Shown: in pieces, positions 8,063 through 27,096 of the stretch
Layout: each line of letters opens with the position of its first letter
Position numbering within the stretch: position 1 is the stretch's first letter
Assembly (NCBI GenBank): GCA_964385185.1
Contig: CAYLOA010000013.1
Coordinates: 1 to 33,744, forward strand
Direction of reading: 5' to 3'
DNA: 33,744 nt
From: an uncultured Methanosarcinales archaeon
GTDB taxonomy: Archaea > Nanobdellota > Nanobdellia > Woesearchaeales > CALCXY01
The notes under the pieces: model-generated
Seen by the model: only the letters and a program-made list of their open reading frames with translations
The model's database searches: none
What the model was told of the DNA's origin: nothing
Position numbers and translations under genes: made by a program

Positions 8063-8540
8063 ATGATTTCACCAGTAATTGTGCAAACTTATATCTGTCT
8101 TCGATGGGATTATAGATAGTAACGGGGACGGTTATGGTTGATATAAATAATGAATCTAGTTTGGGATTTGAGTATAGTGGAAATAGATCTGACCCTGAGC
8201 TATCTATGTCTAATTGTTCTAGAGTAACCTCGGAAAAGCCAAACGTATCTAGATAGAATTCTTTTGTCGATGAACTGGTCATTGCTCTGATAAAAGCATT
8301 TACTTTTAATTCATCAAAACAATTATCTGTTTGGATATTTCGAAAAGTACATTGTAATTCGGGAAGAAATGCTGCCTTTTGAGCAAGAGCAATGGCTTTG
8401 AGGTCTGCATTTCTTTCTGCATCTCTTGATATGGAAGTTTTTTGTATTTTTGTATAAAAACTGAAACCAAAAACTAACAAGAAAAAGAAAATGATCAATA
8501 CGGCGATCGTCTCTGTCATTTTAATTTGAGCCTTATTCAT
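8055..8540 (-). CDS. Class III signal peptide (pilin-like) protein
   Basis: MNKA/QIKMTETIAVLIIFFFLLVFGFSFY; TAATG stop/start overlap at 8540. Confidence 0.82.
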   Translation of the reverse strand: MNKAQIKMTETIAVLIIFFFLLVFGFSFYTKIQKTSISRDAERNADLKAIALAQKAAFLPELQCTFRNIQTDNCFDELKVNAFIRAMTSSSTKEFYLDTFGFSEVTLEQLDIDSSGSDLFPLYSNPKLDSLFISTITVPVTIYNPIEDRYKFAQLLVKSYG

Positions 8541-9628
8541 TAGTACATGCCCTCACAACTTGAGACTGTTTGAAGGGCTTCATTTTTTCTATTTAATCCT
8601 GCACCTCCATAGGCTGCATTGTTCAAATCTATGAAATCTTGTTTATCTCCCTCTTTGAGACCGTCAGAGAGTATATCTGTAACGGTCTGGTCCATATCAT
8701 CTAAAATTTGGAGTGATTCATCATAGGGCGTTTGACAACTTAGAAATGAAGCTAATAATCCCTCTGTTCTTTCTTTGTAAACATCCGTTACAAACTGCAT
8801 CTTATGGAGGATTCTTTCTGTCCCGCATCGATACATTTCAGGATTCTCTGCAAAAATAGCAGCATATAATAATGATTTTTCAAGAAACGGTAGCGTTGTA
8901 GGATCTGTACTCCAGGAGTTGCCCTCTTTTTGATAGAATGAAATTAATCTATCATTGGGAGATATTTTAATAGCTGTTACAAATGCGTCACCCATTGATT
9001 GAAGATTTTTTGGAATTTCCCTGCTCAGATCGAATCCATCAAATCCGATTATTTTTACTTTGTAATTATTCAAATCTTGTATATTAGGTAGATCATTTTT
9101 AGCAACTAACTCTTTGTTGAACACTAATTCTTCTGAATCGTCAATTTTCATCAATCTTGGAGGGAGTTCAGCAAAAATGTCTGAGACCAAATCTTCATTG
9201 TTAGCATCTTCCAAAATAATGTATCGCACTTCAGGAGAGGTAATTAAAACCATATTGGATACTCTGTACGGCATGCTCCAGTCATTCGTCCATGCTAGCA
9301 TTCTAATGCCTTTTACCAAATCAGGGGCAAACATGACTTTATCACCATAGGGCACTTGGGTATCTGAAAGTGAATAGGTGCAAGAGCATGTTTCTGTGCA
9401 TCTAAATCCTAGGTTGAGATTTGGAACATTTATGACTTGGATGGTTCCTCGTGAGACTTCAGCACCTGTTGAGATGGCATCGATATCATTCAATACTGTG
9501 GCTGCAATTTTGCTTCTTGAAAACTTGGTTTGAGTGTTAATTACATTAGCAAAAAAGACTAAAATAAGAGCGCCTGCTATTAAGACAAAAATCCAATTAA
9601 ATTGCATAGAAATTTGAGCTTTTTTCAT
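8540..9628 (-). CDS. Class III signal peptide (pilin-like) protein, about 362 aa
   Basis: MKKA/QISMQFNWIFVLIAGALILVFF. ATG at 9628 lies 1 nt after the upstream stop and is preferred over GTG 9646. Confidence 0.82.
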   Translation of the reverse strand: MKKAQISMQFNWIFVLIAGALILVFFANVINTQTKFSRSKIAATVLNDIDAISTGAEVSRGTIQVINVPNLNLGFRCTETCSCTYSLSDTQVPYGDKVMFAPDLVKGIRMLAWTNDWSMPYRVSNMVLITSPEVRYIILEDANNEDLVSDIFAELPPRLMKIDDSEELVFNKELVAKNDLPNIQDLNNYKVKIIGFDGFDLSREIPKNLQSMGDAFVTAIKISPNDRLISFYQKEGNSWSTDPTTLPFLEKSLLYAAIFAENPEMYRCGTERILHKMQFVTDVYKERTEGLLASFLSCQTPYDESLQILDDMDQTVTDILSDGLKEGDKQDFIDLNNAAYGGAGLNRKNEALQTVSSCEGMY

Positions 9629-9629
9629 C

Positions 9630-10157
9630 CTAAGATGGCCACTCACTTATTCGTGTTCTGTCTCCTGCCCCTTCTAGTCTTAATTTTGCTTTGCCGTCTG
9701 ATGTCGGTATGCAGAGGAATCCATCAGATCCTAGGTCAATATTACCTACATCTATGGTCACTTCAGCTCCTGGGATGAGAAATACATTATTCTGTGTTCC
9801 TGTGGTCCAAAAATTACAAATTAAGGCATTGTAGTCATCAGATGTGTCGTCGCAGATTGCTGTCTGCGCAGGAGTTAAACCTGCATGGTCTTGGACATCT
9901 AAGTCTATAAAACATATTTCTTTGAATTTTGAAGGGACGGTAATAACTTTTTGTTTCACATCTTGAGATGAAGCGGTAGACTTTATGGATGTCTTTAGGT
10001 CTGTTCGTAATTCAATTTCTGCTACTTGATCTGCTCGGTTAATGAAATCTCCAATTGCTCGGTATCCATAGAGGAGGACGAGAGAGAATATGATTGCTGC
10101 CATGACATAGATGAATATCTGTCCCATGATTTGTCCTTTTTTGTATTTTTTTACCAT
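9630..10157 (-). CDS. Class III signal peptide (pilin-like) protein
   Basis: MVKKYKKG/QIMGQIFIYVMAAIIFSLVLLYGY; 7-bp overlap with the end of the giant gene. Confidence 0.82.
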   Translation of the reverse strand: MVKKYKKGQIMGQIFIYVMAAIIFSLVLLYGYRAIGDFINRADQVAEIELRTDLKTSIKSTASSQDVKQKVITVPSKFKEICFIDLDVQDHAGLTPAQTAICDDTSDDYNALICNFWTTGTQNNVFLIPGAEVTIDVGNIDLGSDGFLCIPTSDGKAKLRLEGAGDRTRISEWPS

Positions 10158-13100
10158 TTTTTTCGTGCTCTCGCTGCTGTTTGCTTTGAGATAATTTTAT
10201 TCTTAACGAGTCTGTCTAAAGATTTTTTAGCATTTGCTTTTGAAATCTTTTTTGATTGGACCGCATGGTGGATAATATCAGTATGTGTTGTCTTTTTGGT
10301 ATGAGGCGCCATACTTTCTAGGGATGATGATAATTTAGATGCTGATAGGGTAGACGATCTACCAATCTTTCTAAGTTCATCGATTACAGTAGGGTGATCT
10401 GATCCTATGTGCTTCTTTATCTTTGGAGATACCTTATCTGCAGATTCCCATCGTGTTAATCCATCTAATCTCGAAAAGACATCAGATAATTTATGTGTTT
10501 TTGGTGCCTTAATTGGAATCCAACCTTTACCGTCATCAGGAGTGGATGATTTTGGAGGGAGGCCAAAGAAATTGGAAGGTGCTTTAGACCTTTCTTTCAT
10601 ATATTGAGCCCTTCTTGCACGCATTTGTTGTGCTAACGTATCCAGCATCTGGGTGCCACGTGTAGGTGATTTTGGAGCGGGTTTGGCTATTGGAGCCATC
10701 TTCTTCATCGGTTTCTTTGGAGGGAGAGGTTTAGGTCCTGATCCTTTATTTTTATTGTAATAATAGTAAGCAGCATATCCTCCTCCGCCTAGTATTAACA
10801 GTATAAGGATTACCATTATAATGGTGAAGAATGAACTCGGATGGGAATCTGGATCAGTAGGGTCTGTTCCTTCATCGATTTCTACTTTGTCATCGTATCC
10901 ATCATCATCTGTATCGGGTAATCTTGGATTGGTATCTTCTCTAAACTCATTGAGGTTGGTAAGACCATCTTCATCAAGGTCTTGAGAAGCGTCTGATGAA
11001 TCTAGAGGGTCTAGATTGTGTCTTATCTCGAAATCATCATTCATACTGTCATTATCGTCATCAAGGTCACATGCATCTCCTTCTTTATCTCCATCTGTGT
11101 CTTGTTGGTCATTGTTAGCATCATCCGGACAGTTATCCACATTATTTAGGACGTCATCTCCATCTCTATCTAGGTCCTCTTCTGCTGAACACAGTCCTTG
11201 AATGCAGGAGAATCGTGTTTTACAATCATCTTCTGCGTTACATTTTAGGTTTACATCACATTTCAGTGCACATGATTTTCCACAATCGATGTCTGTCTCT
11301 GTTCCTGGGTCAAACTTTCTATTGAAACAGGTGCCTGTCTCTACACAGATTCCTGCTGAATTTGAACATTCAGTTGATTTACAGTCTGCATTTGCATGAC
11401 AATCTTCTCCTAGATCACATTTATTACAGTTTCCACCACAATCTACATCTGTTTCTTGGCCATTTTCAATTCTGTCATCACATGATGAAGCCCTACAGAT
11501 ATTTGCAACACAAGAGTGGGATGAACAATCATCTGCATCATCACAGGTTCTTCCTGTTGAGCATAATCTGCACGATCCTCCGCAATCTGTGTCGGTCTCA
11601 TCTCCGTCCCTAATATTATTATTGCATGAAACTGAGTTGGTTAGTAGGTTTATTGAAAATCCGTCTGTATCCTTTGGTTGAGAGGATAAGTCAGCTGTAT
11701 TTTTTGCTCTCACGGAGAGTCTATAGTCTTTTGACTCATTAAGATCTACTCCTGTGACAAATCCTCTGAATTCTCCAAAGAAAGATCCATTTGAAGATTG
11801 TTCAGCTGATCTTGTTGTGTTTAGGACCACTACTGACCCAAATTTCTCTTTGACTACGATTTCGAATTCATTCACAGCTGATTCATCATCCTTTGCCTCG
11901 ACATCTACAAATACTTTTTCGGTGAATGGGGATACTTCTGAGTTGGATGATGAGGCGTTTGGTATTTTATCAGATAGCCGAGTAATTCTTGGAGCTGTTG
12001 AATCTATAATAAAGGTTAATGATCTTGAAGTCTCCTCTCCTGAAAAAGCACAGGATATTGAGAATGTGTGTGCCCCTGAGTCTGTATCTGGTAGCGTTGC
12101 AGTATGATGCAATCCATCTCTCAACATTCCTGAGAATGGTAGGGATGCATTTGTGTAGAAACACTCAGCCCCTTTATTTGTGGTTACATTAAGTACAGGA
12201 GGGGGTGTTGTAATTACAGGAGGGGTGTTAATCCTTGTGATTTGGAGTGGAATCTCAAGATCGAAGTTTACCGGAACAGATGTATTCAACTTTGAGATGA
12301 GTTCTGCTTTGTTTCTACATCTAATATTGAATGTGTGTAGTTTTGTAGCTAAGTCCACGAATGGAGTTGCTACTTCATGATCATTCTTGAAGGAAGATTC
12401 TACTATTAAGAGATCTTCTAGACTTCCAGAGGTAATTTCGGTAGCGTTTATGGTGAAATCGTCTTCAAACTGTTGCAGGTTTATAGCATTTACACCATTA
12501 AAGATATGTCTCATCTCATCAAACTCTGCAAATTCTTCATCAAACTTACAAATTGTTTTGTCGTCTGTGGTGAGTGATAAGGTTGTTCTCTCAGGAGGTT
12601 CTACGACTGGATTTGGTGTAGCTTTCAAGTTGGAAATTCTTGGAGTAGAGAGATCAACGGTGAGTGGGAAAGAAGCCCCTTCAACTTTGTCTGTTTCTGC
12701 GTCAATACATTTGACAAATAGTGTGGCTGTTGTTTGGACGAAGAGATCTCTTATAGTATGTGTGGATCTTCCTGTTGTATTGAATTTTTTCATATTTGCC
12801 AATTGGACATTCTTAGTTGAGAATGAACACTCGGAGGATCTGGAAGTGACCATGGTTACGTTCAATTTGTTTACGGATGAGAAACCGTAAGATGGCTCTG
12901 TTAAGACGAATTGGAGATCTGAGAAGAATACTGCAAATCGGAATTCTTGTTCGTTAAATTTATTGCCAATAAGATCTGTTGCGTTTATTGAAAATGTATA
13001 TGTGGACTCTTTAAGTTTTGCAAATGGACGATAATTAAATTCTTTATTGTCTAGAGATGCATTAAATAAGGTTACTTGGATAGGTTCATTTGTTGTTTCA

Positions 13101-16100
13101 TCGATTAGGATTGGTTTTAATGAGGTAGGTTCAACAGGTTCGTTAAATTGAAGTCTCAATAATGGTCTAGAGTCTTCTACAACGGATAGATCTCCTCCTG
13201 TTATATCTAGTACGACATCTTGTAGCAATTCTGATAGTGGGGAGGCATCGATAGATCGTGCAGTAATTGTTGCAACTGGGCCAATAGAGTCTAAGATGAT
13301 ATTCCCTTCTGCTTTTCCTTCTTTTCCAAGGTCATTAATTGCTGTAATGTTTATGAGATTATCACCTTCAAATAAATTTAGGAAATCGAATGAAAATGAA
13401 TAGATGTTTGGATTTCCGGATGTTTCTAGCTTGACACTTGTGGTTTGGTCATTAATTGATATGGTGTCTTGGAGTACTGCTTTTGTTGTAATTATTCCTT
13501 CAATAGTTATTGGAGATGCGTCAACCACTGCATTTGCAAAAGGAGTTGGGGAAGTTACAATGATTACTGGCGTGGTAGTGTCAATAGTAAATTTATTTGC
13601 TACTGGTGTTGATCTTCCTTGGGTATCTACACCATTCAGATGGATTGTGTAATTTCCATCAACTCTTAGTGGAGTGAATAATGTGAGTGTGATTAGTCCT
13701 CTTGCAGCATCTGAGGTTGTTGTTGAGGGAATTACTCCATTTGGTCCAGTGATATGGAGGGAAGAGGCGATGAAGTCAATTCCTACATCTGATGTCAGTA
13801 TTCCTTGTGCCGTCCTAATTTCTCCTAGTATACTATTCTTTCTTGGATTGTTAATTTCAGCAAATGGCCCATCTGAAGAGAAGAAAATATCATGAGATGA
13901 GCTGTTTACATTTCCTGCTAGGTCTGTTGCTCTAATTTCTACTGCATTTGGTCCTCTACTGAGAGGGACATTTTCTATTGCATAGGAACCGTTTGATGTG
14001 GTTGCATTTGATTGAAATCCATTTACGAATATTTGTATGGATGTATTTTCCTCAGCAGATCCAGCCATTAAGATGGATGAGTTAATGACTGTTCTGTTAC
14101 TTGGAATGTCTAATGTAGGTTGAGGAGTGATGTAATCTGCTTTGAATTCGATTGTGATGGTTCCTTTTTGCAGATTTTGCCCTTTGTCCTCACAACTTAT
14201 TTCGAATTTGTAGTTTGTTCCATCTATTAAGAGACCTGAATCGGTATCAATTGTAGAAATTCTATGTCTGAATTCTCCTAGTTCTTGGGTTGAGGACATT
14301 ACTTGTTGCTGTACGCCCCCTCCAATGAAATCTGCTTTACATTCTGTGTCGAGTGAGTAGGTGGTTACTTCTAATAGTTCAGCAAAGTCATTATCTGAAT
14401 TATTTCTGAAGAACGTATTTGGTGCAATTTGTTGGATAACTACTGGGAAGTTTGGATTTATAGTAAGTTTAATATCCTTTATTTCTGATAACTTTCCAGC
14501 TTTGTCTTCACACTGGACACTCTTGCTGATTATTCCTACGCCTGATGTAAATGATTCTGTTAAGAGTTTTTGGCTGAAGTTTAAGTCATCAAACCCTAAT
14601 GTTTTTTGGTTTAGAGTTAATGGTGAATCTCCAAATCTACATCTCACTCCACCAGAATTATCGGATGCTTTGATGTCTAAGGTGATTGTTGCGATGTCTT
14701 GTTGATCCACCTTAAAGACTAAGAAGTGATCTTCCTCTAAGAATATTCCATCCACCGGTCTTATGTCTGTGATAATTGGGATATCATCTGGAGCTGCTCT
14801 TTCAATGAACATATTGATGAGTTTTTGTTCTCCTACATTTCCTAATGCATCTTTACATTCAATAGTGATTGGGTTGGATCCTAAGTTTAGCTGGAAGTCT
14901 GGAGTGTGTGAAAACTCTGTTTGTGAAGTTGAGGACATTCTTTCTGTTGATGGCGTTTGTCCTGGGATGTAACTTAATGTGCACTCTGTGGCAGCTTCAT
15001 CCGTTCTCAATGTGAAGGTTGGTCTTCTTTGGATGGATGCGTTTGTTAATTGGGATGTCATCTCTATTGTTGGTCCTTTGGTATCACTGATTACTATGAC
15101 TGAGAAATTATTGAGATTTCCTGCATTATCTAGAATTTCTAACAGTAGATTGTTGGTTACTTCTTGTCCTCGTTGTTCGTTTATGTTTATATTTGAGAGT
15201 GTGAATGTTCTTATGATGTCGTTAATAGTTGCGTCTGTGCTTCCAAGAGTAATTTTCTGAATTGGGTTTTCTGAATAGGTTCCTGAAATATTCACTACCT
15301 TACTATTCGTTCTGAATTGGAGTAGTTCTTGAAGTGCAGGAGTTACTGAAGCAGAGGTTATATCAGCCCCTACTGTGTCTCGTGTGAATACTTGTGTTGA
15401 AACGTTTGTATTTCTTGCACCATCAAAGGCTGTAACAAGAATAGTATTTTGACCTTCTGTTAGGTTAATTGGGATTCTCAATCCATTATTTGATTCTATG
15501 CCATTTCCATCTGGAATCGGGACACTTACTGGATCTTTGCCACCTGTTACTAATAATCTGGCCATATGTTCATCTGAGAATGAAACGAGTAGTGTGACAA
15601 GTTCAGTGTTTGTGGTGTCGGTTGCAGTTTCATCAAGACCAATAATTTCTACTTTTGGATTGGTTGTGTCTACTATGAAGTTTAGGGTTCGGACGTCTGG
15701 AGATGAACCTGTTGTTCTTTCAACAATGAGGTCTAGGGCATTTGTTCCTTCTTGGACTTTATCGAGTAGAGTTGTCGTGTGGGAGAATATTCTATTGTTT
15801 GTTGTTGTGAAAATGATTGGATTTCTGTTTAACTCAGCTTTTGTGATGGTCACTTCTTCTGCATATTCAAATGTGATAGTAGGTAAGGCTGTTGGTATTT
15901 GTTCTAGATGGATCGGGGCTGATGATAGGAAAGTTGGAGTAGAGGTATCAACAAAGAACGTGTGATGAGTCGCATGCGTATTCCCTGGAAGGTCTTGGAT
16001 CACTAATGTGATGGTGTGGAGAGTATTATCTGATAGTGGGGTGGTGAGTACTTGACTGACATCAATTGATTTTTGACCGTTGAGTAGTCGAGTTACCAGG

Positions 16101-19100: not shown

Positions 19101-22100
19101 ACGGTGGTGGAGGATTGTCTGTTTAATGCTGAAAGTGAAAACTGGCAAGATTCTACACCGTTGATAAAGGATTTTTTGTTTGTTTTTGCGAACAATGTTG
19201 GAAGTGTATCTGCAGTGGTGAACACATTGCTTTGTTTCAAGGTAATCTTGTTGTTTTGTGTGATAATACCTGCATCTGCAATTTCTATTGGAAAGTCTAC
19301 ATCAATTTGGTTTTGTAAGACAAACCCTTGACCGGATGAGGCCGTTTTTGATGTTTTATCTACACAATCTATGTATATGTGGAAGACTCCATTGAATCCA
19401 AAGTCATGGTCTATGGAATGCACCCTTGAGAATGTTTCTCCTGATGAAAACTCTAAGCTTGAGAATGGGATGGTTGGTGGGGAAGGCTCTTGTAATGTTG
19501 AAAATCTACAGATGGAATCTAGATTTGTTTGTATATTAATTGTGTTTGTAGTGGTGTCTGTTACGATTGTTCCTTTTCCAAGTGATGATGCTTCTATAAT
19601 CAGTGGACGAGAGTCTATTAAAAGGTCATTTCTTGTTACTTTCTCTTGATCATAATCATTGGTACATTTTACAAAGTATTCTACTGTTTTTACCGTATTA
19701 TCAAACGCATCTCCTAGATTGTAGATTACTTGATGTAATGTTTTTGCTGCATTTTGAGGACTGAATGAGCCAATTGAATTTCCTTCTCTGAATTGGTGGA
19801 GTGTACAGACGGAAGGTTGACTCGTTTGGATTTGGATGGTCGTTAATTGTGTGCTTGTTCCACCAAACTCTGGCTGGATGATTTCGATTTGAGGTCCTTC
19901 TTTGATGACAGTTATATTTTTATCGGTGATTCCTAGGTTTCCCGCTTGATCTTGTACTTCACATCGGAAGGTAATATTTGTATTTTTATTTCCTATTTGC
20001 GAAGCTAAGTTAATCGGTTGTGAGTTGATTTCCAAGAATCCTTGGCTGTTTACTGAAGATAATATTCTTTGATTTTGTGTGCAACCGGCATCTTGGTCTG
20101 TACAGGAGCAGGATAACTGGAAGATATCTTCATTTGTGAATTTATCTGCAATAAGTGGAGGTGCTTGGATTATTATTTGAGCACTTGGAGGGGTTAAATC
20201 AACGAATACTGATGTTGTTTGCGTGATTGAGTTTTTGGCTTGATCTATGGCTTTTACTTCAATCTGTCTTTCTCCTTCACTTGATGCAAGAATTCCTAGT
20301 GGAATTGATGCTACCAATGTTCCTGAACGTCTCTCTGGTGTTAATGTGAATGGTATAGGTGTAGTGTTCGTAATATCAATTCCAGTTACTTCTGCTGAAA
20401 CGAGGTTGTCTTCTGAAATATTTACTTCTAAGATAATTGTATCTTGGGAGATTGCTGGAGAGGATGAGAGGTTAATTTTTGGAGGGGTTGCATCTATTAC
20501 GAATGTGTGTTCAGGGAAAACTCCTTCTAATGATTGTGAGATGACTCCTCCTACATTTGAGATGATTTTAGCTGCTGTTATTGCAACTGTGTATGAACCA
20601 TCCGGTAGAGTAGAAGGGGTGGAGGCTGTAAAGACATGTGGTGCTAATGATGAGGTGAATGGAAGGAGATCTAATGCAAGGTTAGTTCCTGTTAGAGTGA
20701 CTGATGTTAGGTTGATAATTTCTCCTGTAGTGAATTCAATGAGTAATTCTGGATTAGGAGATCTGATAAATCCTTTTGGAGAGATCGTTGGTGTGGAAGG
20801 TACGTCTACATCTATAGTAAAAGACCAATCAAATTCATTAAAATTGTTTGCTTCATCGGTGGCGTTTACCTTGATATTGTATACCCCTTCTGGTAAACCT
20901 TCTTGGACGTTGATGTTGTGTATTAACAGAACTCCCGATTGAGTAGGTTGTTGGTTAGGAATAACTACTACGCCATCAATATCCATAAATGTAGAGACAA
21001 TTGGAGACTTGTTTTGTACTTCTACTACTATGATTGAATTGTTCTCTGAGATAATGGATTTATCTCTTGGGATTTCATTAAAGAAAAATGGTGGATTTTG
21101 TTCTAGAACAATGATGTGTGGATCTGAAAATCTTCCTAGGTTTCCAAGTTCATCTTCAGAAGCTGCAAAGAAAGCATTTACTCCATCCTCTAAAGTTACG
21201 GTTGTGCCAAAGAAACCTGGAGGTTCTGCGGTATTCATTACAAAAATAGGAAGGCCTTGTAGAGTAGGATCATCTTCAAATGGAGGGGATATGGTGACTC
21301 GCTTAATAGCGTTTGATAATACTTGTACTCCGACAATCTCATAATTTTTTCCAGAGAATCTTCTTGGTTGTGTAAAGGTCATAAATCTATCTGGAGAGAT
21401 TGATGAAGATGGTCTGTCAAACGTGTTGAAAGGATCTCGGATGGTGAAGATATCCGTTTTTAGGGAGAGTAATATTTCTTCTCCTCGTAGATTTTGGCCA
21501 TCGTCGTCCATAAAGGGTTTAAAGTATGATGGGGGGGTCGTGGTTCGTAGAGGGATTACTTTTGCTGAGATAAATTCATCAATCGATGTTCCTAGAGCTT
21601 GCCTTAATTGGATACCTACATCTGGTTTTTGTTCAAAGTCAACTCCTGAGACAAAAAAGGAGGGGATATTTGTGAATTGGAGTTGGTCTGTTAATGTAAA
21701 GAATGTTGGTGGAATTTTTGGTCCAATTGTGTCAATTACTATTGCTCGACCATTTGCGATTACATTTGAATCTACATTATTTTGATCTTTGGAACTTATG
21801 GTAAACGTTGCAGTAGCTTTGTCTAAGTTGGTAAAGAATCCTGTGCCCGGAATAGTTAATGTGGCTGTGAATCTTTGTTTGTTGGAATCTGTTTGAGTCG
21901 TTTGTAGAGGAACTGTTCTCGTTATTCCTGTTACATCTAGGAAGGTAAGAGCGAATGCTTGTATACTGCTCATAGGTTCAGATGTATTTATTTTAACGGT
22001 GTATTGCTTGACACCTCCTCCTGGATGGATGAGGGTGACTGCGTCAATACCATCATGTACAGAGATATTAATTTCTGCAGGGATGGTATCTGAGATGGTA

Positions 22101-25100
22101 AAGAATGCTTCTTTAGTACTTGGATTTTGAAGGCCATCTTTTGCAGCGAATCTCGCTCGATAGTTGCCTACTTCAAGACAATCTGCTACTTGTGCTGAAA
22201 ATACATTTCCTGTTATTTTTTTGAGAGGTATTTCTCTTGTAACTGCACATCCTGTTGTGGATAGAGCCGTATCGATGTTTTCGATACGAACTGTTGTAGA
22301 TGTAGGGATGATGGTATTTGTAAACTTAGGATCTGAAATGGTTGCAACGAGTCGGATTGATTCTTTGTATTCACCACTTCCTGCAGTATCTATGTTAGCT
22401 TGAGATAACACTTCTATTCTTTCTTCATCTTGGTTAACGACTTGAGGATCTGCAATAATTGGACCTAATTGATCATTTGCTATTTGAAATGAAAGTGGAG
22501 GAGAAATACTATTTTTTCCGTTTATAGCAGAGAGGTCAGTTGCGGTTAATGAAAATGATTGTATACTGTTTGACTGTAGTATTACTGGTGCAAAAGTCCA
22601 GATGCCCCTTCCTGCTGTATCTACAAAAATTCCCTCTCGATTGTCTAGTTTAACCTTTACTCTTCCAGAGGGCTCAATCCAGGTTCCTGAGACTCGTATA
22701 CTATTTTGGGTCGTTACAAAGGGATTTACTGTATCAATGTTATGAGGAACCCCATCGATTGAGAGATCTATAAGCTGAGGAATATTATTATCTACATTCA
22801 CGAAAATACATTCAGGATTTTCATAATTATTGTTAGTTCCGTCTGATCCCGCAAAGCACATAAATCCTGATTCCTCTAACCGAGGGAGCTTTGTGACATC
22901 TCCTGGTGCAAAGTTCTGTTCTTGGTTATTGGCATCAATAAAACATCCTTGTGTTGCTGTTCCAAAACAGAATTTAACATCTGTTGTAAGGCAGCCTAGA
23001 GGACCTAAGTTGTTGAAATTTCCAGTATCGTCATCACATGCGAAAGAGAGGATTGTATTTCCCAGGTAGACGTCATCTACGTCTAGAGGGGTAAATCCAC
23101 CTAAGACTTCAACTAATGGAGTAACTTCTGGAGGGGTTGTATCCACTGAGAAAATTGCTGTTGCTGTATCTACAACTGCTCCATTATCTCTACATATGGT
23201 ATCTACTGTATGGAAACCGTCTGTTAAGGGGATAGTTGATCTGTATATATAGTCAGTTCCAGGTTCTGCATTCGGATTTATGATTTGTTGGAATGATGCC
23301 TCTTGTGAGGTTCCCAGTCTAAACTTACAATCATAGGGTGCTTTTCCGAATTGATCGTTTAACGTCGTTATTTGGATTACTGTGGGTGAAGTGGTTACGA
23401 TTTGGTCAAATGGTGTGATCGTGTTAATCTGTTTGTTTTGATCAATTTCTACTGATCTGGAAAAACTTACAGGATTAAGTGCATTATCTGTACATGTTAA
23501 GGCAATTCTGTATACTCCGTCGGCGAGTTCTTCTAGGTCTTGATTGTCTAGGGAGAATGGAGTTCCTGGAGTGATCGTTACTCCATTGAGTGGAAATCCT
23601 GGAAGGTCTTCAATGGTGGATGTGATTTTTTCAACGTTGATGTTGCATACTACAAATTCGGAGGAGGTAATGGTTGATGCTATGTCTGATGTTGAGCTGT
23701 CTTCCAGGTTATTTGTGACTTCGATAGGGGATATTGTTATTATAGGGGAGATGGTATCTATTAATGCCTTTTTGGTCTTAATTGGTTCCACATTTCGGTA
23801 TATGTCTTGAGCAAAGTAGGAAATAGTAAAGTCGCCTTCTTGACCTTCTGGAGGAGTTAGTATTGTAGAGAATTCAAATTTGTTATTTTCTTTTTGGACT
23901 ATGATTCCTTGATTTGGATCAGGGGTGCAAGATTCTTCAGTGGTTGTGCACATAAATAGAGTTATTGATTCTACGTTGCCGTAGGATATATCTTCTATTT
24001 CAAATGCAAGTACATTTTCTGATCCCGCTGAGAAAAATGCTGGGTGTAGTAATTTGGTTACAGGAGCTACTGTGTCTCGTCTGCAGGGTAGAAGGCCCGT
24101 TCCTACACAATCTTGGATGCCATCATCATCTCCATCTTTTATACAAGCAGTTCCTGTCCATTCGCAGACACCGAGTTGGCATTTATCTTGAGATGGGATG
24201 AATGTTTTTGATGAGAGATCATCACCTGGCACTATAAATGGTGATGCTCCTTGGCAGGCTGTCTCTGTTTGGTAATCTTCACACAATGTTGGAGCAGATT
24301 CTGTAGCTGATGGTGATGCACATGCATTACATGCAGAAGCTTCTTCATTTGCAAAACAAGCACCTAGTTTTAAACAAGTATTATCTGTACATTGATCCAA
24401 TCCTTGGCATTCGTCACAATCATCTGTACTTTTATCTGAAGCTGAGAAACAGATTCCTCTTCCTAGCTCTGAATTCAGACCAATATTTTCTTCCCACTGA
24501 CAATTCGTTGGGCCACCTAATCCACAATTGTCTTTTTCACATGCCCCTTCACTTTTGTAGTCAAAACAAGTCATTGAGGGTGAACAAGATATACATCTAT
24601 CTACCGTTGTTGGCAAAGGATTGAGTGAAAATGGTTGATTTGGTTGGGTATCATGTCCGTCTGCATCTTCTATATCATAATAACAGAAATTTCTGTCTAG
24701 TAATGTGCCATCCCCTCCATTACAGGAATTTTCTTTGTAATACATACCTAATATGTTTGGAAAGGCAACGTCGATATTTTTACATACAGTTGTGCCTATA
24801 CATGCAGCTTCATCATTTTCTCCATTATCTATACATACTGCGCCAGGAGCTAAAGAAGTTTCACAATTATTTTCAGTTAATTTATTGTTTGTATCGCATG
24901 ATCCTACTATAATTTTTTTATCGTTGGTGTCCCTTAAGCAGAAATCTCCTTTGTTACATTGTAGTTCGCATACTGCATCTCCTGCAAATGTGGATAAAGG
25001 TGATGAGGATATCGGTGAGCCGCCATTCAATGCTGTGTCAGCTAAGTTTGCTTCTAATGTGTAGCTAAACGTTTTGTCGAATTCTGAAGAGGTGTCTATA

Positions 25101-26962
25101 TATGATGTTGTTGATGGGCCTAATTCTGCTAATCTATCTCCTTTACCACTCCCTTCTGATCGGAATAATACATATTTTGTAATAGGGCAGCCAAATGAAT
25201 CCCAATTTACGGTGAGTTGAGGGGAACATTGAAGATGATCTATTGATGTTAGGGTTAGAGTTGGGAATTCTGTTTTACAGTTACCGTCAAGCGGTGTGAG
25301 TTCAATGTCCTTTTCTATGGTAATTCCTGGAGTGTTTGGGACTACTATTCCTGATTCTTTGAATTTTGCAAATCCTGGAGTTGATGCTTCTACTTCTAGG
25401 GTGTATGTTATACCTGTACTTACTGCTCTTCTATACTTGAAGATAGGATCTCCAGTTGTAATATCTAGTGTATTCGTTTCAGCAGGGAAGGATAAACCTA
25501 ACGCTTTATTGACGAATCTTAATGTTGCTTGGATAGATTCTTGAGTATTTGCGTTTACTACTTTACCGGTGAAGGTTAATTCTGAGCAGGGTGAACCTTG
25601 GAGGAATGAATCAAACCCTGGAAGTTGGCAACAGAATAACTGGTCATCATTTGGTGAATCGGTATCTACTATTGTATTTCCACATGAACAAAATGATTCC
25701 GTGTATGTTGTTGAACGACCTGTTGTTACTGTTGAACTGTCGAAAGATGCTGTTGGTTGTCCTACTTGACATGCTGGCATAAAGCAAGCAGTTGAGCAAC
25801 ATACTTGACCGGTTGTTCCTGAGAAAAGATTGTTATTAATCGGTATTCCTCCTCCATCGAAACATTGTTGATTTCCATATGAGTCACAGGAGTTTCCTGC
25901 TGGACAGGAGCACTCATTATTTTCAGTCGTGTCAGAGGGGTTTAGGCAACAGAGATCTGATGTGTCTATAGATCCATCTCCGTCATTATCGATTCCATCA
26001 CTACATTGGGAAAGTCCTTGGTTATCACATACTCTATCGTTATTTGCATCTTGATTTTCATCACATTGGAGACAAGCTTGCGCTTGAGGTCTACATACTG
26101 TTGAACCTTGGGATGGGTTTGGACAGAAATAACATCCTGCAAGGGATGAGGAACATGATTGCTCATCTGTTAATTCTGAGCAGAATTGTGTTTGTACAAT
26201 ATTATCGCAGATATTATCATTATCGCCATCTCTTTGGTTATCTTGACATGCTGTACATGTTTGCAAACATTGTTGAGAGGATTGACAGAATGAACATCCT
26301 GATGCTAGACAGGTATTTTCTCCTGAGATATCTTCACATCTTAGTTGTGTTGGTGCTCCTTCGCATACTCCATCTTGGTTTTGATCTTCACTTTGTGGAC
26401 AGGTTGAACAATCAGGGAGGCAAGCGCCTGTTGATTTACAAAATGAACAGATGGAGGATGTACATGCTGCTTCATCTCCTGAAAAGTCTGCACAGGATTG
26501 AGTATCTGTGCCAATATCTGGACATTGAGGGAATTTCTTTGTAATGGATCCATCAGATTCTTCTGCGTAACAGAGATTGCCCCCTCTTGGAGTTCCTGTT
26601 GTAAATTTAGCGAATTCTGCACCTGAGTTGACCAGACAGAGTGATTCTATATTATTGATTGCACACTGACTTACTGCAGCTGGATCGAAACAGCATCCTA
26701 GATCACATGCAGGAAGTTCTTCACACGCATCCGTGGTAAAGAAATCTGCTAGACATTCTGCTTGATCTGCTGGATGTTGAGGGAGACCGTATTGAGGTGA
26801 TGTTGCTGGACAACATTCTATTTGAGTAATTGCGGACTCTTCACATACAGCGTCGAGAAACTCAATATTTGCACAGCAGCCAAAGTCATTCTCTGCAGCT
26901 TGCGCTGGAGGGATTAATGTGAGGAGGAATGCTACGGTTAGAAGTAAGAGGAGTTTCTTCAT
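10151..26962 (-). CDS. Giant (5,603 aa) membrane-anchored cell-surface protein, putative adhesin
   Basis: Sec signal peptide (…PPAQA/A), Cys-rich N-terminal repeats, FN3-like domain, dozens of Ig-like repeats ending D-x-T-x-P, three ETDxDCG repeats, TSP3-type Ca-binding repeats, one C-terminal TM helix and a Pro/Lys-rich tail. Uninterrupted 16.8-kb ORF with GAGGAG RBS. Confidence 0.92.
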   Translation of the reverse strand: MKKLLLLLTVAFLLTLIPPAQAAENDFGCCANIEFLDAVCEESAITQIECCPATSPQYGLPQHPADQAECLADFFTTDACEELPACDLGCCFDPAAVSQCAINNIESLCLVNSGAEFAKFTTGTPRGGNLCYAEESDGSITKKFPQCPDIGTDTQSCADFSGDEAACTSSICSFCKSTGACLPDCSTCPQSEDQNQDGVCEGAPTQLRCEDISGENTCLASGCSFCQSSQQCLQTCTACQDNQRDGDNDNICDNIVQTQFCSELTDEQSCSSSLAGCYFCPNPSQGSTVCRPQAQACLQCDENQDANNDRVCDNQGLSQCSDGIDNDGDGSIDTSDLCCLNPSDTTENNECSCPAGNSCDSYGNQQCFDGGGIPINNNLFSGTTGQVCCSTACFMPACQVGQPTASFDSSTVTTGRSTTYTESFCSCGNTIVDTDSPNDDQLFCCQLPGFDSFLQGSPCSELTFTGKVVNANTQESIQATLRFVNKALGLSFPAETNTLDITTGDPIFKYRRAVSTGITYTLEVEASTPGFAKFKESGIVVPNTPGITIEKDIELTPLDGNCKTEFPTLTLTSIDHLQCSPQLTVNWDSFGCPITKYVLFRSEGSGKGDRLAELGPSTTSYIDTSSEFDKTFSYTLEANLADTALNGGSPISSSPLSTFAGDAVCELQCNKGDFCLRDTNDKKIIVGSCDTNNKLTENNCETSLAPGAVCIDNGENDEAACIGTTVCKNIDVAFPNILGMYYKENSCNGGDGTLLDRNFCYYDIEDADGHDTQPNQPFSLNPLPTTVDRCISCSPSMTCFDYKSEGACEKDNCGLGGPTNCQWEENIGLNSELGRGICFSASDKSTDDCDECQGLDQCTDNTCLKLGACFANEEASACNACASPSATESAPTLCEDYQTETACQGASPFIVPGDDLSSKTFIPSQDKCQLGVCEWTGTACIKDGDDDGIQDCVGTGLLPCRRDTVAPVTKLLHPAFFSAGSENVLAFEIEDISYGNVESITLFMCTTTEESCTPDPNQGIIVQKENNKFEFSTILTPPEGQEGDFTISYFAQDIYRNVEPIKTKKALIDTISPIITISPIEVTNNLEDSSTSDIASTITSSEFVVCNINVEKITSTIEDLPGFPLNGVTITPGTPFSLDNQDLEELADGVYRIALTCTDNALNPVSFSRSVEIDQNKQINTITPFDQIVTTSPTVIQITTLNDQFGKAPYDCKFRLGTSQEASFQQIINPNAEPGTDYIYRSTIPLTDGFHTVDTICRDNGAVVDTATAIFSVDTTPPEVTPLVEVLGGFTPLDVDDVYLGNTILSFACDDDTGNFNNLGPLGCLTTDVKFCFGTATQGCFIDANNQEQNFAPGDVTKLPRLEESGFMCFAGSDGTNNNYENPECIFVNVDNNIPQLIDLSIDGVPHNIDTVNPFVTTQNSIRVSGTWIEPSGRVKVKLDNREGIFVDTAGRGIWTFAPVILQSNSIQSFSLTATDLSAINGKNSISPPLSFQIANDQLGPIIADPQVVNQDEERIEVLSQANIDTAGSGEYKESIRLVATISDPKFTNTIIPTSTTVRIENIDTALSTTGCAVTREIPLKKITGNVFSAQVADCLEVGNYRARFAAKDGLQNPSTKEAFFTISDTIPAEINISVHDGIDAVTLIHPGGGVKQYTVKINTSEPMSSIQAFALTFLDVTGITRTVPLQTTQTDSNKQRFTATLTIPGTGFFTNLDKATATFTISSKDQNNVDSNVIANGRAIVIDTIGPKIPPTFFTLTDQLQFTNIPSFFVSGVDFEQKPDVGIQLRQALGTSIDEFISAKVIPLRTTTPPSYFKPFMDDDGQNLRGEEILLSLKTDIFTIRDPFNTFDRPSSSISPDRFMTFTQPRRFSGKNYEIVGVQVLSNAIKRVTISPPFEDDPTLQGLPIFVMNTAEPPGFFGTTVTLEDGVNAFFAASEDELGNLGRFSDPHIIVLEQNPPFFFNEIPRDKSIISENNSIIVVEVQNKSPIVSTFMDIDGVVVIPNQQPTQSGVLLIHNINVQEGLPEGVYNIKVNATDEANNFNEFDWSFTIDVDVPSTPTISPKGFIRSPNPELLIEFTTGEIINLTSVTLTGTNLALDLLPFTSSLAPHVFTASTPSTLPDGSYTVAITAAKIISNVGGVISQSLEGVFPEHTFVIDATPPKINLSSSPAISQDTIILEVNISEDNLVSAEVTGIDITNTTPIPFTLTPERRSGTLVASIPLGILASSEGERQIEVKAIDQAKNSITQTTSVFVDLTPPSAQIIIQAPPLIADKFTNEDIFQLSCSCTDQDAGCTQNQRILSSVNSQGFLEINSQPINLASQIGNKNTNITFRCEVQDQAGNLGITDKNITVIKEGPQIEIIQPEFGGTSTQLTTIQIQTSQPSVCTLHQFREGNSIGSFSPQNAAKTLHQVIYNLGDAFDNTVKTVEYFVKCTNDYDQEKVTRNDLLIDSRPLIIEASSLGKGTIVTDTTTNTINIQTNLDSICRFSTLQEPSPPTIPFSSLEFSSGETFSRVHSIDHDFGFNGVFHIYIDCVDKTSKTASSGQGFVLQNQIDVDFPIEIADAGIITQNNKITLKQSNVFTTADTLPTLFAKTNKKSFINGVESCQFSLSALNRQSSTTVQQSLEGNRLFNIYKLPLSTPLSEGIDTIDVECRSGINKATFTVSVNVDTTPPPTPTLNTLPATANSQLSVTGFADAEFVRILVNQNPAAITKVDAGTFSTTLSLEPYTHNQQITITADAFDILENGPSTATSTQTITVDKESDTPTAINVQVDEEDVIITGQSEPQSIVRIYIAQPGLPPVLLTTANTQSNGKFNQELEGMPEGHYTLFVTTVDFLANLESLPSISKSFTIDLSPPRIIAITPNVNEQFSQGSIPIHIILEDDSDIDVSSIEIRVDGSLQSTQTGKTPTISGIRTNTVALLTETDGVHTLSVSAVDSLGQEITTSRTFTIESDAPTLISTSLNSIPLETFTVVNDSTQKLDLLFNERIDAINSELDTIQIPSSSITTEDNRIFSIQLPPLADQVSHTITIEATTSLGTTRRTFIFGVDTLSPIFDTTSITPKSQYTEIRGIASDAFPASISVDKFLSHTQVDKGRFTATTTSLNPTLTMQDQAGHSEQFTLELPEPSEDIELTVNTVPTASSLPITITGTTSPRTEVTITINNQVNSVTSDVRGEFTLNAGPAQGMQSNQNNLITVSAGEVTKRFTTLVDSSAPRVILTSPEEGDTVSTSEIEIGFEDLSDLNPGASSVKVNGLPVQFTTDKGAQTIKALIDTTPRSISVETLLTDIHGLSSTHSFSFTQADVPEINLLEDLSAYVFTKQPFITASIPEGEQVSATLTSGTGPIPLITIIPPTGDTFVFYPEIALDHATTYTLQISATKETIKKATRTKTFTTDLIPPSLQTTQIQSPTNTNTIDVLGTFVEDNPKSVTFALRTSSGAISSQGTLPIIDNTYLLQTPLSGGDQTFTLTVSITDKSGQVTTETIPIVRNTNSPSIEIKQPQAQAILSQRISNVIVESDTDTKGSILIDNVPTAAQDLLGTIESTIPISFIQEGQTTLEASATDTATNTNTVSNIVTLDTTPPSVSLVTPQLLTNSLTPTISFTLTDSSGVANVTLIIDDTFLVTRLLNGQKSIDVSQVLTTPLSDNTLHTITLVIQDLPGNTHATHHTFFVDTSTPTFLSSAPIHLEQIPTALPTITFEYAEEVTITKAELNRNPIIFTTTNNRIFSHTTTLLDKVQEGTNALDLIVERTTGSSPDVRTLNFIVDTTNPKVEIIGLDETATDTTNTELVTLLVSFSDEHMARLLVTGGKDPVSVPIPDGNGIESNNGLRIPINLTEGQNTILVTAFDGARNTNVSTQVFTRDTVGADITSASVTPALQELLQFRTNSKVVNISGTYSENPIQKITLGSTDATINDIIRTFTLSNININEQRGQEVTNNLLLEILDNAGNLNNFSVIVISDTKGPTIEMTSQLTNASIQRRPTFTLRTDEAATECTLSYIPGQTPSTERMSSTSQTEFSHTPDFQLNLGSNPITIECKDALGNVGEQKLINMFIERAAPDDIPIITDIRPVDGIFLEEDHFLVFKVDQQDIATITLDIKASDNSGGVRCRFGDSPLTLNQKTLGFDDLNFSQKLLTESFTSGVGIISKSVQCEDKAGKLSEIKDIKLTINPNFPVVIQQIAPNTFFRNNSDNDFAELLEVTTYSLDTECKADFIGGGVQQQVMSSTQELGEFRHRISTIDTDSGLLIDGTNYKFEISCEDKGQNLQKGTITIEFKADYITPQPTLDIPSNRTVINSSILMAGSAEENTSIQIFVNGFQSNATTSNGSYAIENVPLSRGPNAVEIRATDLAGNVNSSSHDIFFSSDGPFAEINNPRKNSILGEIRTAQGILTSDVGIDFIASSLHITGPNGVIPSTTTSDAARGLITLTLFTPLRVDGNYTIHLNGVDTQGRSTPVANKFTIDTTTPVIIVTSPTPFANAVVDASPITIEGIITTKAVLQDTISINDQTTSVKLETSGNPNIYSFSFDFLNLFEGDNLINITAINDLGKEGKAEGNIILDSIGPVATITARSIDASPLSELLQDVVLDITGGDLSVVEDSRPLLRLQFNEPVEPTSLKPILIDETTNEPIQVTLFNASLDNKEFNYRPFAKLKESTYTFSINATDLIGNKFNEQEFRFAVFFSDLQFVLTEPSYGFSSVNKLNVTMVTSRSSECSFSTKNVQLANMKKFNTTGRSTHTIRDLFVQTTATLFVKCIDAETDKVEGASFPLTVDLSTPRISNLKATPNPVVEPPERTTLSLTTDDKTICKFDEEFAEFDEMRHIFNGVNAINLQQFEDDFTINATEITSGSLEDLLIVESSFKNDHEVATPFVDLATKLHTFNIRCRNKAELISKLNTSVPVNFDLEIPLQITRINTPPVITTPPPVLNVTTNKGAECFYTNASLPFSGMLRDGLHHTATLPDTDSGAHTFSISCAFSGEETSRSLTFIIDSTAPRITRLSDKIPNASSSNSEVSPFTEKVFVDVEAKDDESAVNEFEIVVKEKFGSVVVLNTTRSAEQSSNGSFFGEFRGFVTGVDLNESKDYRLSVRAKNTADLSSQPKDTDGFSINLLTNSVSCNNNIRDGDETDTDCGGSCRLCSTGRTCDDADDCSSHSCVANICRASSCDDRIENGQETDVDCGGNCNKCDLGEDCHANADCKSTECSNSAGICVETGTCFNRKFDPGTETDIDCGKSCALKCDVNLKCNAEDDCKTRFSCIQGLCSAEEDLDRDGDDVLNNVDNCPDDANNDQQDTDGDKEGDACDLDDDNDSMNDDFEIRHNLDPLDSSDASQDLDEDGLTNLNEFREDTNPRLPDTDDDGYDDKVEIDEGTDPTDPDSHPSSFFTIIMVILILLILGGGGYAAYYYYNKNKGSGPKPLPPKKPMKKMAPIAKPAPKSPTRGTQMLDTLAQQMRARRAQYMKERSKAPSNFFGLPPKSSTPDDGKGWIPIKAPKTHKLSDVFSRLDGLTRWESADKVSPKIKKHIGSDHPTVIDELRKIGRSSTLSASKLSSSLESMAPHTKKTTHTDIIHHAVQSKKISKANAKKSLDRLVKNKIISKQTAARARKKW
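10843..11175 (-). repeat. Thrombospondin type 3-like Ca2+-binding DxDxDG repeats in the giant protein
   Basis: DRDGDDVLNNVDNCPDDANNDQQDTDGDKEGDACD, DDDNDSMNDDFE, DLDEDGLTNLNE, DTDDDGYDDKVE. Confidence 0.85.
11186..11627 (-). repeat. Three tandem Cys-rich ETD(T/V/I)DCG repeats in the giant protein
   Basis: CNNNIRDGDETDTDCGGSC, CDDRIENGQETDVDCGGNC, CFNRKFDPGTETDIDCGKSC, each followed by C-x5-C-x4-C. Confidence 0.85.
26024..26497 (-). repeat. Three tandem ~50-aa eight-Cys repeats near the N-terminus of the giant protein
   Basis: C..E..C....C.FC.....C...C..C....D...D..C pattern occurs three times (SCADF…DGVCE, RCEDI…DNICD, FCSEL…DRVCD). Confidence 0.8.
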
Positions 26963-27096
26963 TTTTTCTCCTCTTTCTTTAGTTTTTCTTCTATCGCTTC
27001 AGTTATGAATTGAATTAACGTTTTATTTTTGAGAAGGGCATTGAGTCTAGCTTTTTTATGTAGTTGGTCTTCTATTTCAATATTTACTCTCGTCAT
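26959..27096 (-). CDS. 45-aa ribbon-helix-helix (CopG/ParG-like) DNA-binding protein, absent from the ORF track
   Basis: Manual translation MTRVNIEIEDQLHKKARLNALLKNKTLIQFITEAIEEKLKKEEKK* shows an alternating beta strand (RVNIEI) plus two helices. Its TGA overlaps the ATG of the giant gene (ATGA). Confidence 0.85.
   Translation of the reverse strand: MTRVNIEIEDQLHKKARLNALLKNKTLIQFITEAIEEKLKKEEKK

Follow-up and report, generated by a model that had tools for sequence, protein, structure and literature searches.

A giant fused fibre protein beside pilin-like genes in Woesearchaeota and its probable role in adhesion

Overview of the Giant Protein

The contig CAYLOA010000013.1 (assembly GCA_964385185.1) comes from an uncultured archaeon of the Woesearchaeales; it is 33,744 nucleotides long, and the whole of it was analysed and is called the window here. 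Its minus strand encodes a giant protein of 5,603 amino acids (aa), in which a tip-stalk and a membrane anchor, which are encoded separately in the nearest relatives, are joined in one chain. This protein is probably a membrane-anchored adhesion fibre linked to a type IV filament (T4F), that is to say, the adhesin-like part of a T4F-related surface apparatus specific to Woesearchaeota. It is read as adhesin-like and T4F-related because its gene is translationally coupled to the genes of four prepilin-like proteins and lies near that of a candidate major pilin, and a role in holding cells is probable because the pilus-like gene cluster is common to most of the group.

The window is a complete contig (33.7 kb, C13) of a 1.30-Mb genome with 35.5% GC in 85 contigs, which is rated 100% complete, and the giant open reading frame (ORF) makes up about 1.3% of that genome. 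A first-pass annotation made from the DNA alone had placed the sequence in the DPANN archaea, which fits the record titles of the related loci (Woesearchaeota, Nanoarchaeia, Nanoarchaeota) and the small size of the genome (1.3 Mb). It had also proposed a layout of tip, stalk, base and tail with the N-terminal head farthest from the cell. This layout is supported by the topology, i.e., a Sec signal at the N-terminus, a transmembrane (TM) helix near the C-terminus and a Lys-rich tail behind it, and it is a design common to the whole family. The parts of the giant protein are as follows, and the domains resembling the immunoglobulin fold are called Ig-like:

10151..26962, minus strand: whole ORF, fused tip-stalk and anchor protein of 5,603 aa (P0001), a single stop-free frame
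26894..26962, minus strand: Sec-type signal peptide, aa 1–23, with a hydrophobic window at aa 4–22 and then a GCC start motif
25265..26893, minus strand: Cys-rich N-terminal modules, aa 24–566, with three Cys repeats of about 50 aa (at aa 157, 209 and 261) and a beta-rich module
24980..25264, minus strand: predicted FN3 domain, aa ~567–661 (AlphaFold2 model, Foldseek, VIA)
24008..24979, minus strand: conserved Cys-rich head module, aa 662–985, the defining module of the family, with some 19 conserved Cys (alignments)
13259..24007, minus strand: stalk of tandem divergent Ig-like domains, aa 986–4568, ending with the linker LDSIGP and the strand VATITA
13163..13258, minus strand: fusion linker, aa 4569–4600, 32 non-hydrophobic residues (alignment to the G001 junction; contig bridging)
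11693..13162, minus strand: Ig-like domains of the anchor part, Big_5 first, aa 4601–5090 (blastp to separate anchor genes; Pfam Big_5)
10835..11692, minus strand: base, aa 5091–5376, with three ETDxDCG Cys modules and acidic repeats of the calcium type resembling thrombospondin type 3 (TSP3)
10766..10834, minus strand: TM helix, aa ~5377–5399, with a hydrophobic window at aa 5377–5395
10154..10765, minus strand: Lys/Arg-rich cytoplasmic tail, aa 5400–5603 (about 204 aa), with the motif SDVFSRLDGL

Fusion of the Tip-Stalk and the Anchor

The first-pass annotation had described a single protein. One continuous ORF is indeed present, but it joins two genes which the nearest relatives encode apart. 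Among the 12 related loci examined first, 8 have a giant gene followed by a second gene (i.e., the anchor gene) of 906–1,306 aa; in the genome G001, which belongs to the same genus, the contig holds only the first 254 aa of the anchor. A separate anchor brings its own signal peptide, followed by Ig-like domains, an acidic base rich in Cys, a TM helix and a basic tail; the stand-alone giants of two-gene loci lack a TM helix. The anchors align to aa ~4570–5384 of the window protein (best blastp E 1.5e-83, L018), with the G001 anchor 44% identical over aa 4583–4821, and the stand-alone giants of G001 and P0003 (the latter 4,692 aa long) follow aa 693–4567 and aa 17–4566, respectively, in collinear order and end there.

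At the junction itself, the frame runs through the LDSIGP linker and the VATITA strand into the 32 non-hydrophobic residues of the fusion linker; G001 has at this place a stop codon and then the first 32 residues of its anchor, including the signal peptide. No hidden signal peptide was found at the junction in the other reading frames. Since the junction is in frame, no signal peptide is hidden there, and an independent contig spans the place with 0 differences, the fusion is genuine.

In order to see how the two forms are spread, 80 loci anchored on pilin-like gene B (described below) were collected, a few of which are the same genes as the loci examined earlier. Upstream, 56 of them could be assessed; 24 were left out (21 with less than 6 kb of upstream flank and 3 without a gene B found by motif). 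In 29 of the 56, a single ORF of 1,500 aa or more carries a C-terminal TM helix, and 17 have a giant plus an anchor. The remaining 10 comprise 4 with an ORF of anchor size and an unclear partner, 4 without a large ORF and 2 with a large ORF lacking a TM helix. A hidden Markov model (HMM) of the head matches 24 of the 29 single ORFs and, in the two-gene loci, 13 of the 17 upstream partners; of 23 ORFs of anchor size it matches 1. A quickly made tree of pilin-like protein B (44 rows with a known state) requires 7 changes between the fused and split forms, at least 2 of which are forced by well-supported branches.

It is scarcely credible that an assembly chimera or a sequencing error joined two genes here. 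The closest relatives do have two genes, and the contig does carry a 100-N gap elsewhere (31738–31837), but the giant ORF has no N, the junction is in frame, and no signal peptide lies in another frame. The ORF is also free of long DNA repeats able to misjoin: Tandem Repeats Finder reports four tiny arrays, none longer than 43 nt, and direct repeats reach 35 nt at most. Moreover, 20 public runs contain the stretch. They belong to 17 metagenome studies (marine, seawater and hydrothermal vents), and none of them is listed as RNA. Contigs from four runs of four studies, none of them flagged as a possible source of the assembly, cover 30 of 30 bins of positions 9000–28000; nearly all pieces are at least 99% identical, and none of the contigs shows an insertion or deletion relative to the reference in that range. 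A contig of X5, an independent study, spans the fusion point (12853–15073) with 0 differences. The absence of a chimera, for which read mapping across the ORF had been suggested in the first-pass annotation, is thus borne out, because independent contigs cover the entire ORF. Chimera and frameshift readings were therefore rejected on the in-frame junction and the independent bridging contig.

As a separate observation, one contig each in three of the four runs (X5, X6 and X9, three studies) departs from the reference exactly at 10154 and 18611, and the letters beyond these points are the same foreign ones in all three. There seems to be a co-occurring strain in which the last ~2,800 aa, from within the stalk through the anchor and the tail, are replaced by a different sequence, since the contigs of three runs leave the reference at identical places with identical letters.

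Modelled Docking of the Two Proteins

By eye, most of the 21 listed two-gene giants end in an inter-domain linker plus a short strand, the linker being D-x-T-G-P or K-D-x-R-P-P, followed by 6–12 residues and the stop. A complex of residues 22–254 of the G001 anchor with the last 111 residues of the G001 giant was modelled, with a 17-row alignment for each. The interface score ipSAE was 0.65 (0.63–0.67 in three runs), against 0.01 for the best of three controls; the runs share at least 98% of their contacts, and the predicted local distance difference test (pLDDT) of the partner is at least 85. The ipSAE mark is reached by 116 of 157 solved complexes and by 2 of 215 mismatched pairs, counts that are only rough because the author's own alignments were used. 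In the predicted interface, the last 12 residues of the giant lie antiparallel to anchor residues 32–42, which are the first strand of the Big_5-like domain. We know of no like complex. In the window protein, the same two docking segments are joined in cis.

A free strand end would also suit a pilus-tip adhesin like PilY1/PilC, carried on four minor pilins. Kingella PilC1 and PilC2 reportedly use such a strand to join the minor-pilin complex (PMC13711793). Here, too, a C-terminal strand is predicted to complete the sheet of a partner, and four genes of minor-pilin size lie beside the giant. This alternative is nevertheless very improbable. No PilY1/PilC or DUF2341 match at E ≤ 0.1 was obtained from Pfam in 28 overlapping 400-aa pieces of the protein, and a PilY1 propeller is absent; in the model the strand pairs with the membrane anchor and not with a pilin; and the fused forms are themselves anchored in the membrane.

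Head, Stalk, Base and Tail

The signal peptide is followed by the GCC motif of the family, and CC occurs within residues 16–50 in 61 of 96 full-length relatives. The relatives P0002 and P0003 align over aa 1–980. Cys density is 5–15 per 100 aa over aa 1–1000 and again over aa 5101–5300; for aa 24–985 taken separately it is 3–15. For this last stretch, Pfam gave no family at E ≤ 0.1, and the best PDB sequence match had E 0.61. The AlphaFold2 model of aa 540–985 (33-row alignment) has a mean pLDDT of 75.9 and a predicted TM-score (pTM) of 0.50. Its FN3 part is predicted best (block means mostly 87–97) and gives a Foldseek probability of 1.0 and a VIA Z of 12.0, with a root-mean-square deviation of 1.8 Å over 83 residues to 4u49_A. 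In the ESM Atlas, FN3 was a lead at 0.84 only. C-terminal of FN3, the model has small Cys-knotted alpha/beta modules; the Foldseek and VIA lists for the whole model are filled by matches to FN3. The Cys-rich head had no match in the ESM Atlas. In summary, the signal peptide and the mostly Cys-rich modules with an FN3-like domain, which had been read from the letters, agree with the hydrophobic signal, the Cys density and the modelled FN3. The same holds for the statement that no enzymatic or toxin domain is present: in the 28 overlapping 400-aa pieces, no such Pfam family reached E ≤ 0.01, and the only weak enzymatic rows at E ≤ 0.1 were Prok-E2_B (0.013) and RE_BanI (0.09).

The Ig-like domains run from aa ~986 to ~5090, with Pfam matches to Big_13 (E 1.7e-19), Glucodextran_B, Big_3_3, Big_5 and Big_6. 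A self-trained HMM finds 27 domains at an i-E below 0.01, and 36 loosely, between aa 983 and 4989; the estimate of about 40 domains given earlier is fair, because the gaps are roomy enough for a few more. The repeats are as divergent as had been noted, with a median pairwise identity of 18.4% and a maximum of 31.9% (351 pairs), and no DNA repeat is longer than the 35 nt mentioned above. As an Ig-like domain is 3.5–4.5 nm long, some 40 of them would reach 100–200 nm by simple arithmetic.

In the base, C..ETDxDCG modules lie at aa 5113, 5161 and 5212, together with four acidic motifs of the DxDxD type, namely one clear TSP3 repeat and three looser ones. By phmmer, the TSP3 repeat matches cartilage oligomeric matrix protein (COMP, 3fby, E 9.9e-8) and TSP-2 (E 8.3e-6), and it resembles MtsC of Myxococcus (NCBIfam NF047638, E 4.7e-5). 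Pfam TSP_3 gives E 0.003–0.005 on the base (17–17.7 bits), under the cut-off of 25. The ETDxDCG and TSP3-like repeats that had been reported are present as three modules and one clear repeat, and calcium binding by them may be supposed. This membrane-proximal ectodomain is shared across the family: of 59 anchors, 55 have DxDxD[GN] and 40 an ETDxDCG-type motif.

One C-terminal TM window and a tail of about 204 aa match the TM helix and the tail of about 200 aa seen in the first pass. For the tails of the family, 62 were gathered and reduced to 59 unique ones by removal of three duplicates; they are 123–340 aa long (median 176). The 62 tails contain 19.9% Lys and no Cys. The motif Phi-F-x-x-[LFIM] occurs 133 times in the unique tails, against 17.0 ± 3.8 in shuffles (maximum 28), and is present in 57 of the 59. 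A typical tail has a proximal K-x-L-F-E-x-F-G and a distal E-D-V-F-x-K-L.

Pilin-Like Neighbourhood

The genes around the giant gene are as follows; the four pilin-like genes coupled to it are lettered A to D:

9630..10157, minus strand: pilin-like gene A, 175 aa, KKGQ and then a hydrophobic helix; family in 72 of the 80 related loci
8540..9646, minus strand: pilin-like gene B, 368 aa; model pLDDT 92.6; 133 relatives
8055..8540, minus strand: pilin-like gene C, 161 aa; orthologues at E 2e-30; 75 of 80 loci
7520..8062, minus strand: pilin-like gene D, 180 aa; orthologues; 75 of 80 loci
27211..29349, minus strand: large pilin-like protein, 712 aa, KKGQ and then a helix, with a C-terminus rich in Cys; conserved as a neighbour upstream, with orthologues at E 1e-11 to 5e-15
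29663..31021, minus strand: Cys-rich secreted protein of 452 aa with a lipoprotein-like signal, between the 712-aa and 889-aa genes
31075..33744, minus strand: Cys-rich secreted protein of 889 or more aa, open at the contig end; orthologues at E 1.7e-44
73..381, minus strand: small Cys-containing pilin-like protein, 102 aa, candidate major pilin; orthologues at E 4.7e-12, family (about 95 aa) in 63 of 80 loci

The stop of the giant gene overlaps the start of gene A by 7 nt, and the overlaps of A–B, B–C and C–D are 17, 1 and 8 nt. Five neighbours, i.e., A to D and the 712-aa protein, begin with K/R-G/A-Q followed by a hydrophobic helix, which has the look of an archaeal class III signal, so that cleavage by a prepilin peptidase may be supposed. 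Of the 69 loci that leave enough room on either side, 44 show the tight order A-B-C-D by profile HMMs, and the adjacency of a large surface gene and pilin-like genes is conserved in 50 of the 56 assessable loci. Orthologues of the upstream 712-aa and 889-aa proteins occupy the same positions in relatives. The 889-aa protein is incomplete because the 100-N gap lies inside its ORF and the frame runs off the contig; the 452-aa protein has no Pfam family and no blastp match at E ≤ 1e-3 among 25 proteins compared. The model of gene B (pLDDT 92.6, pTM 0.88) consists of a predicted pilin-like N-terminal helix of 54 residues, a beta domain and a C-terminal helical bundle. The family of B has four near-invariant Cys and a conserved C-terminal S-C-P-x-x-Y.

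As for other genes nearby, a 1,039-aa ORF (4354–7473, minus strand) directly follows the pilin cassette; it has no Pfam family and no counterpart at that place in the 12 loci examined, and its C-terminal part, judged by eye, may have a choline/aminoglycoside-kinase fold. An Lrp/AsnC-type regulator (2795–3271, minus strand) and an AbrB(MazE-like)-PhoU protein (3449–4357, plus strand) lie between the cassette and the small pilin gene.

Candidate machinery for building a filament is encoded elsewhere in the genome. One ATPase gene (L131, 764 aa, in the region 6433–10834 of contig C15) is the only member of its family there (T2SSE, E 3.3e-13); its best NCBIfam row is FlaI (E 1.3e-33, below the cut-off), and its nearest relatives are FlaI and TadA. 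A 711-aa ORF with 8 hydrophobic windows (8-TM) and no family match overlaps this gene and is a candidate for a divergent platform protein. In addition, two A24 prepilin peptidases are encoded on other contigs.

It might be supposed that the giant is a stand-alone fibrillar adhesin and that its pilin-like neighbours reflect the co-regulation of surface genes, not a shared structure. The giant does have its own Sec signal and membrane anchor, so its display needs no pilus, and the ATPase is encoded elsewhere. However, the start/stop overlap and the adjacency in 50 of 56 loci of deeply diverged genomes go beyond what co-regulation usually brings, and this alternative is improbable.

Distribution of the Family

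The head (aa 1–980) has 312 relatives at E ≤ 1e-3, and 126 at E ≤ 1e-10, among 1.84 billion representatives; most are 1,800–6,400 aa long and match near their N-termini. A homologue search restricted to 3,081–9,806 aa returned the query only, which is an artefact of length because the unrestricted search found relatives, and a search for related loci with a 5-row head alignment matched 25 stretches, none of which was confirmed. In genomes, the head profile was found in 31 of 40 others of the same order (one per family, 40 families), mostly once per genome, and in 207 of 300 genomes sampled across the phylum, each at least 90% complete. Counted from the listing, 198 of the 207 hits are in the same order (one, G262, is an unpublished genome). 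The listing also names 18 same-order genomes without a head hit, i.e., 198 of about 216 carry it, and the 73 misses that are not listed seem to fall outside the order, as the listing is sorted by kinship. In other orders of the class there are nine hits, all weak (E 1e-4 to 1e-8), and strong hits occur in the same order only.

The open frames of relatives span 505–8,507 aa, many near 1,650–2,150, and the frame of the window is the fourth longest among those listed. The records of related loci are titled Candidatus Woesearchaeota, Nanoarchaeia or Nanoarchaeota metagenome-assembled genomes, some of them evident auto-labels. The family appears to be undescribed. In the literature, no description of a Woesearchaeota locus with a giant and pilins was found, and the DPANN panel of Fig. 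S10 in PMC13705601 might overlap with it; the paper on the YN1 attachment organelle has no passage on a pilin or a giant protein.

Sequons and the Surface-Layer Alternative

The first-pass annotation had noted many N-x-S/T sequons. The count is in fact low: the giant has 41, against 69.7 ± 7.3 expected from composition-preserving shuffles (0 of 2,000 as low), and aa 1–1600 have zero against 18.5 ± 3.7. Among the 442 genome ORFs of at least 300 aa, the giant is the second most sequon-depleted; the first is a second giant on contig C19 (4 against 42.2 expected). An STT3/AglB gene is present in the genome. In relatives, sequons range from 58 against 26.7 expected to 8 against 42.6; since the counts vary among them, the avoidance of sequons belongs to the window's lineage and not to the family as a whole.

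Two other large secreted proteins of the genome are rich in sequons and are likely candidates for a glycoprotein coat: one on C3 (L128, 2,024 aa, 145 sequons against 48.6 expected) and one on C9 (L129, 2,704 aa, 75 against 32.7, with beta-helix/NosD and alpha/beta-hydrolase domains). The second giant on C19 (L130, 4,172 aa, 8.3% Cys) has DUF4215 repeats and Big_7 and adjoins a 1,196-aa protein whose N-terminus resembles the 712-aa pilin-like protein of the window (E 4.7e-8), so that the two may form a paralogous module.

These counts bear on the main rival, namely that the protein is a component of the surface layer (S-layer) or of an S-layer-like envelope, with the tip-stalk as outer subunit and the anchor as membrane stalk, or else an Ig-fold 'S-layer-like' protein that lets the filament cross the envelope. 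In the SlaA/SlaB S-layers, an outer secreted subunit sits on a membrane-anchored stalk subunit encoded next to it, and tetrabrachion is long-stalked. The family resembles SlaA/SlaB in that relatives have a secreted outer subunit and an adjacent membrane-anchored one; this two-subunit logic holds in 8 of 12 and 17 of 56 loci, the window itself being fused. The near-universal and mostly single-copy occurrence in the order would suit an envelope component, and the conserved head could be a lattice contact and not a ligand site. Passages of PMC13705601 and PMC4858521 also describe Ig-fold S-layer-like proteins with a C-terminal TM helix in archaeal T4F loci and propose envelope priming for them.

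On the other hand, frame lengths from 505 to 8,507 aa are hard to fit to a fixed lattice geometry, and no similarity to SlaA/SlaB or tetrabrachion was found. The giant is no sequon-rich coat although AglB/STT3 is present, and the strongly sequon-enriched L128 and L129 are better candidates for one. The tails of the family, 123–340 aa with conserved motifs, are cytoplasmic; to our knowledge, long motif-bearing cytoplasmic tails are not a feature of S-layer anchors. An S-layer role is therefore considered unlikely, and the reading as a T4F-linked adhesion fibre is retained.

Proposed Mechanism

As an adhesion fibre, the protein would be exported by Sec and retained by its one C-terminal TM helix, with the Lys-rich tail inside the cell. 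The Cys-rich base of the calcium type and about 40 Ig-like domains would hold the disulfide-rich, sequon-free head far from the membrane. In most relatives the fibre would be a machine of two proteins, a secreted tip-stalk and a membrane anchor, in which the last beta-strand of the tip-stalk docks on the edge of the anchor's first Ig-like domain; in the window genome, the fusion would make this joint part of one chain. The fibre would most likely serve attachment of cell to cell or of cell to surface, and the conserved tail motifs may tie it to a cytoplasmic partner.

Several points weigh against this mechanism. First of all, strong conservation of the head throughout an order whose members presumably differ in their partners sits oddly with a host-specific adhesin. 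Anchoring by a C-terminal TM helix speaks against a location at a pilus tip, and the docking model is a prediction on the G001 proteins and not on the fused protein of the window. The pilin-like proteins have no Pfam or NCBIfam family, and the first 60 residues of six of them matched no Pfam family of class III signals; the model of gene B matches no solved pilin (best Foldseek E 0.01; by VIA, generic helix bundles with Z ≤ 8.8). No platform protein was found with Pfam T2SSF (only E 0.008, in an unrelated frame). Finally, the locus (C13) does not lie beside the ATPase gene (C15), and in the closed relatives G017 and G026 the ATPases are tens to hundreds of kb from the locus.

Comparison with Known Systems

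In archaeal T4F loci, passages of Makarova, Koonin and Albers (2016, PMC4858521) and of PMC13705601 (PLoS Genet 2026) describe large adhesin-like proteins of Ig fold and S-layer-like proteins with a C-terminal anchor beside minor pilins, and T4F systems are, according to the same passages, poorly recognised in DPANN. The present locus is similar in that a signal-peptide giant, a C-terminal-TM protein and several minor-pilin-like genes stand together, and in the Cys-rich components, for which those passages propose a role in adhesion or envelope priming. Unlike them, the head, the anchor and the pilin-like proteins here belong to no Pfam or NCBIfam family, and there is no adjacent ATPase or platform gene. 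The sizes of 5,600–8,500 aa, the split and fused forms with a modelled dock and the long motif-bearing tail also set it apart from the published passages.

Bacterial fibrillar giant adhesins offer a second comparison. Like SiiE (PMC6272769) and the 7,651-aa adhesin of Mobiluncus (PMC10619420), the giant has tens of tandem Ig-like domains as a spacer and a distal non-repeat region, and within a small genome it is by far the largest gene product. These bacterial adhesins depend on a type I secretion system (T1SS) or on sortase linkage to the bacterial wall, whereas the giant is archaeal, with a Sec signal at one end and a TM anchor plus cytoplasmic tail at the other. The Pfam scan of the window protein found no RTX and no thioester or isopeptide family, and its C-terminus, a TM helix and a Lys-rich tail, is unlike the T1SS signal of LapA or SiiE.

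The base resembles thrombospondin/COMP and MtsC of Myxococcus in its acidic DxDxDG-type repeat with Cys, but it has only one clear canonical repeat plus three looser motifs, and its Pfam TSP_3 score stays under the cut-off. From SlaA/SlaB and tetrabrachion, apart from the absence of similarity given above, the protein differs in its variable length, its depletion of sequons and its long conserved tail. Among DPANN archaea themselves, the SPEARE giants of Nanohaloarchaeota are surface proteins of more than 5,000 aa with serine protease and restriction-endonuclease domains; these giants are proposed to act in host contact. The giant of the window has no protease or nuclease domain by Pfam (the RE_BanI row at E 0.09 is noise), and the family is unrelated to them.

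Significance for Woesearchaeota

Woesearchaeota are among the most widespread of the uncultured DPANN archaea. A conserved, nearly order-wide locus is now defined, whose parts lend themselves to expression and imaging: a Cys-rich head free of sequons, a stalk that differs more than tenfold in length between genomes, an anchor that is detachable or fused, four pilin-like partners and a tail with motifs. Repeated splitting and fusion of the two genes provides a Rosetta-stone argument, together with a specific and testable interface, for how a secreted giant stays on an archaeal cell. Material for proteomics and cryo-electron tomography exists, because the DNA occurs in metagenomes of at least 17 studies.

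A bolder idea, which is itself quite unlikely, is that the apparatus is an archaeal transmembrane link resembling an integrin or a cadherin and made of pilus-era parts, in which a calcium-stiffened fibre of adjustable length is strand-donated onto its anchor and the tail motifs recruit the T4F motor or another scaffold. If this were true, contact made 100–200 nm away would be coupled to the pilus-like apparatus, and the locus would encode the long-sought attachment organelle of Woesearchaeota episymbionts.

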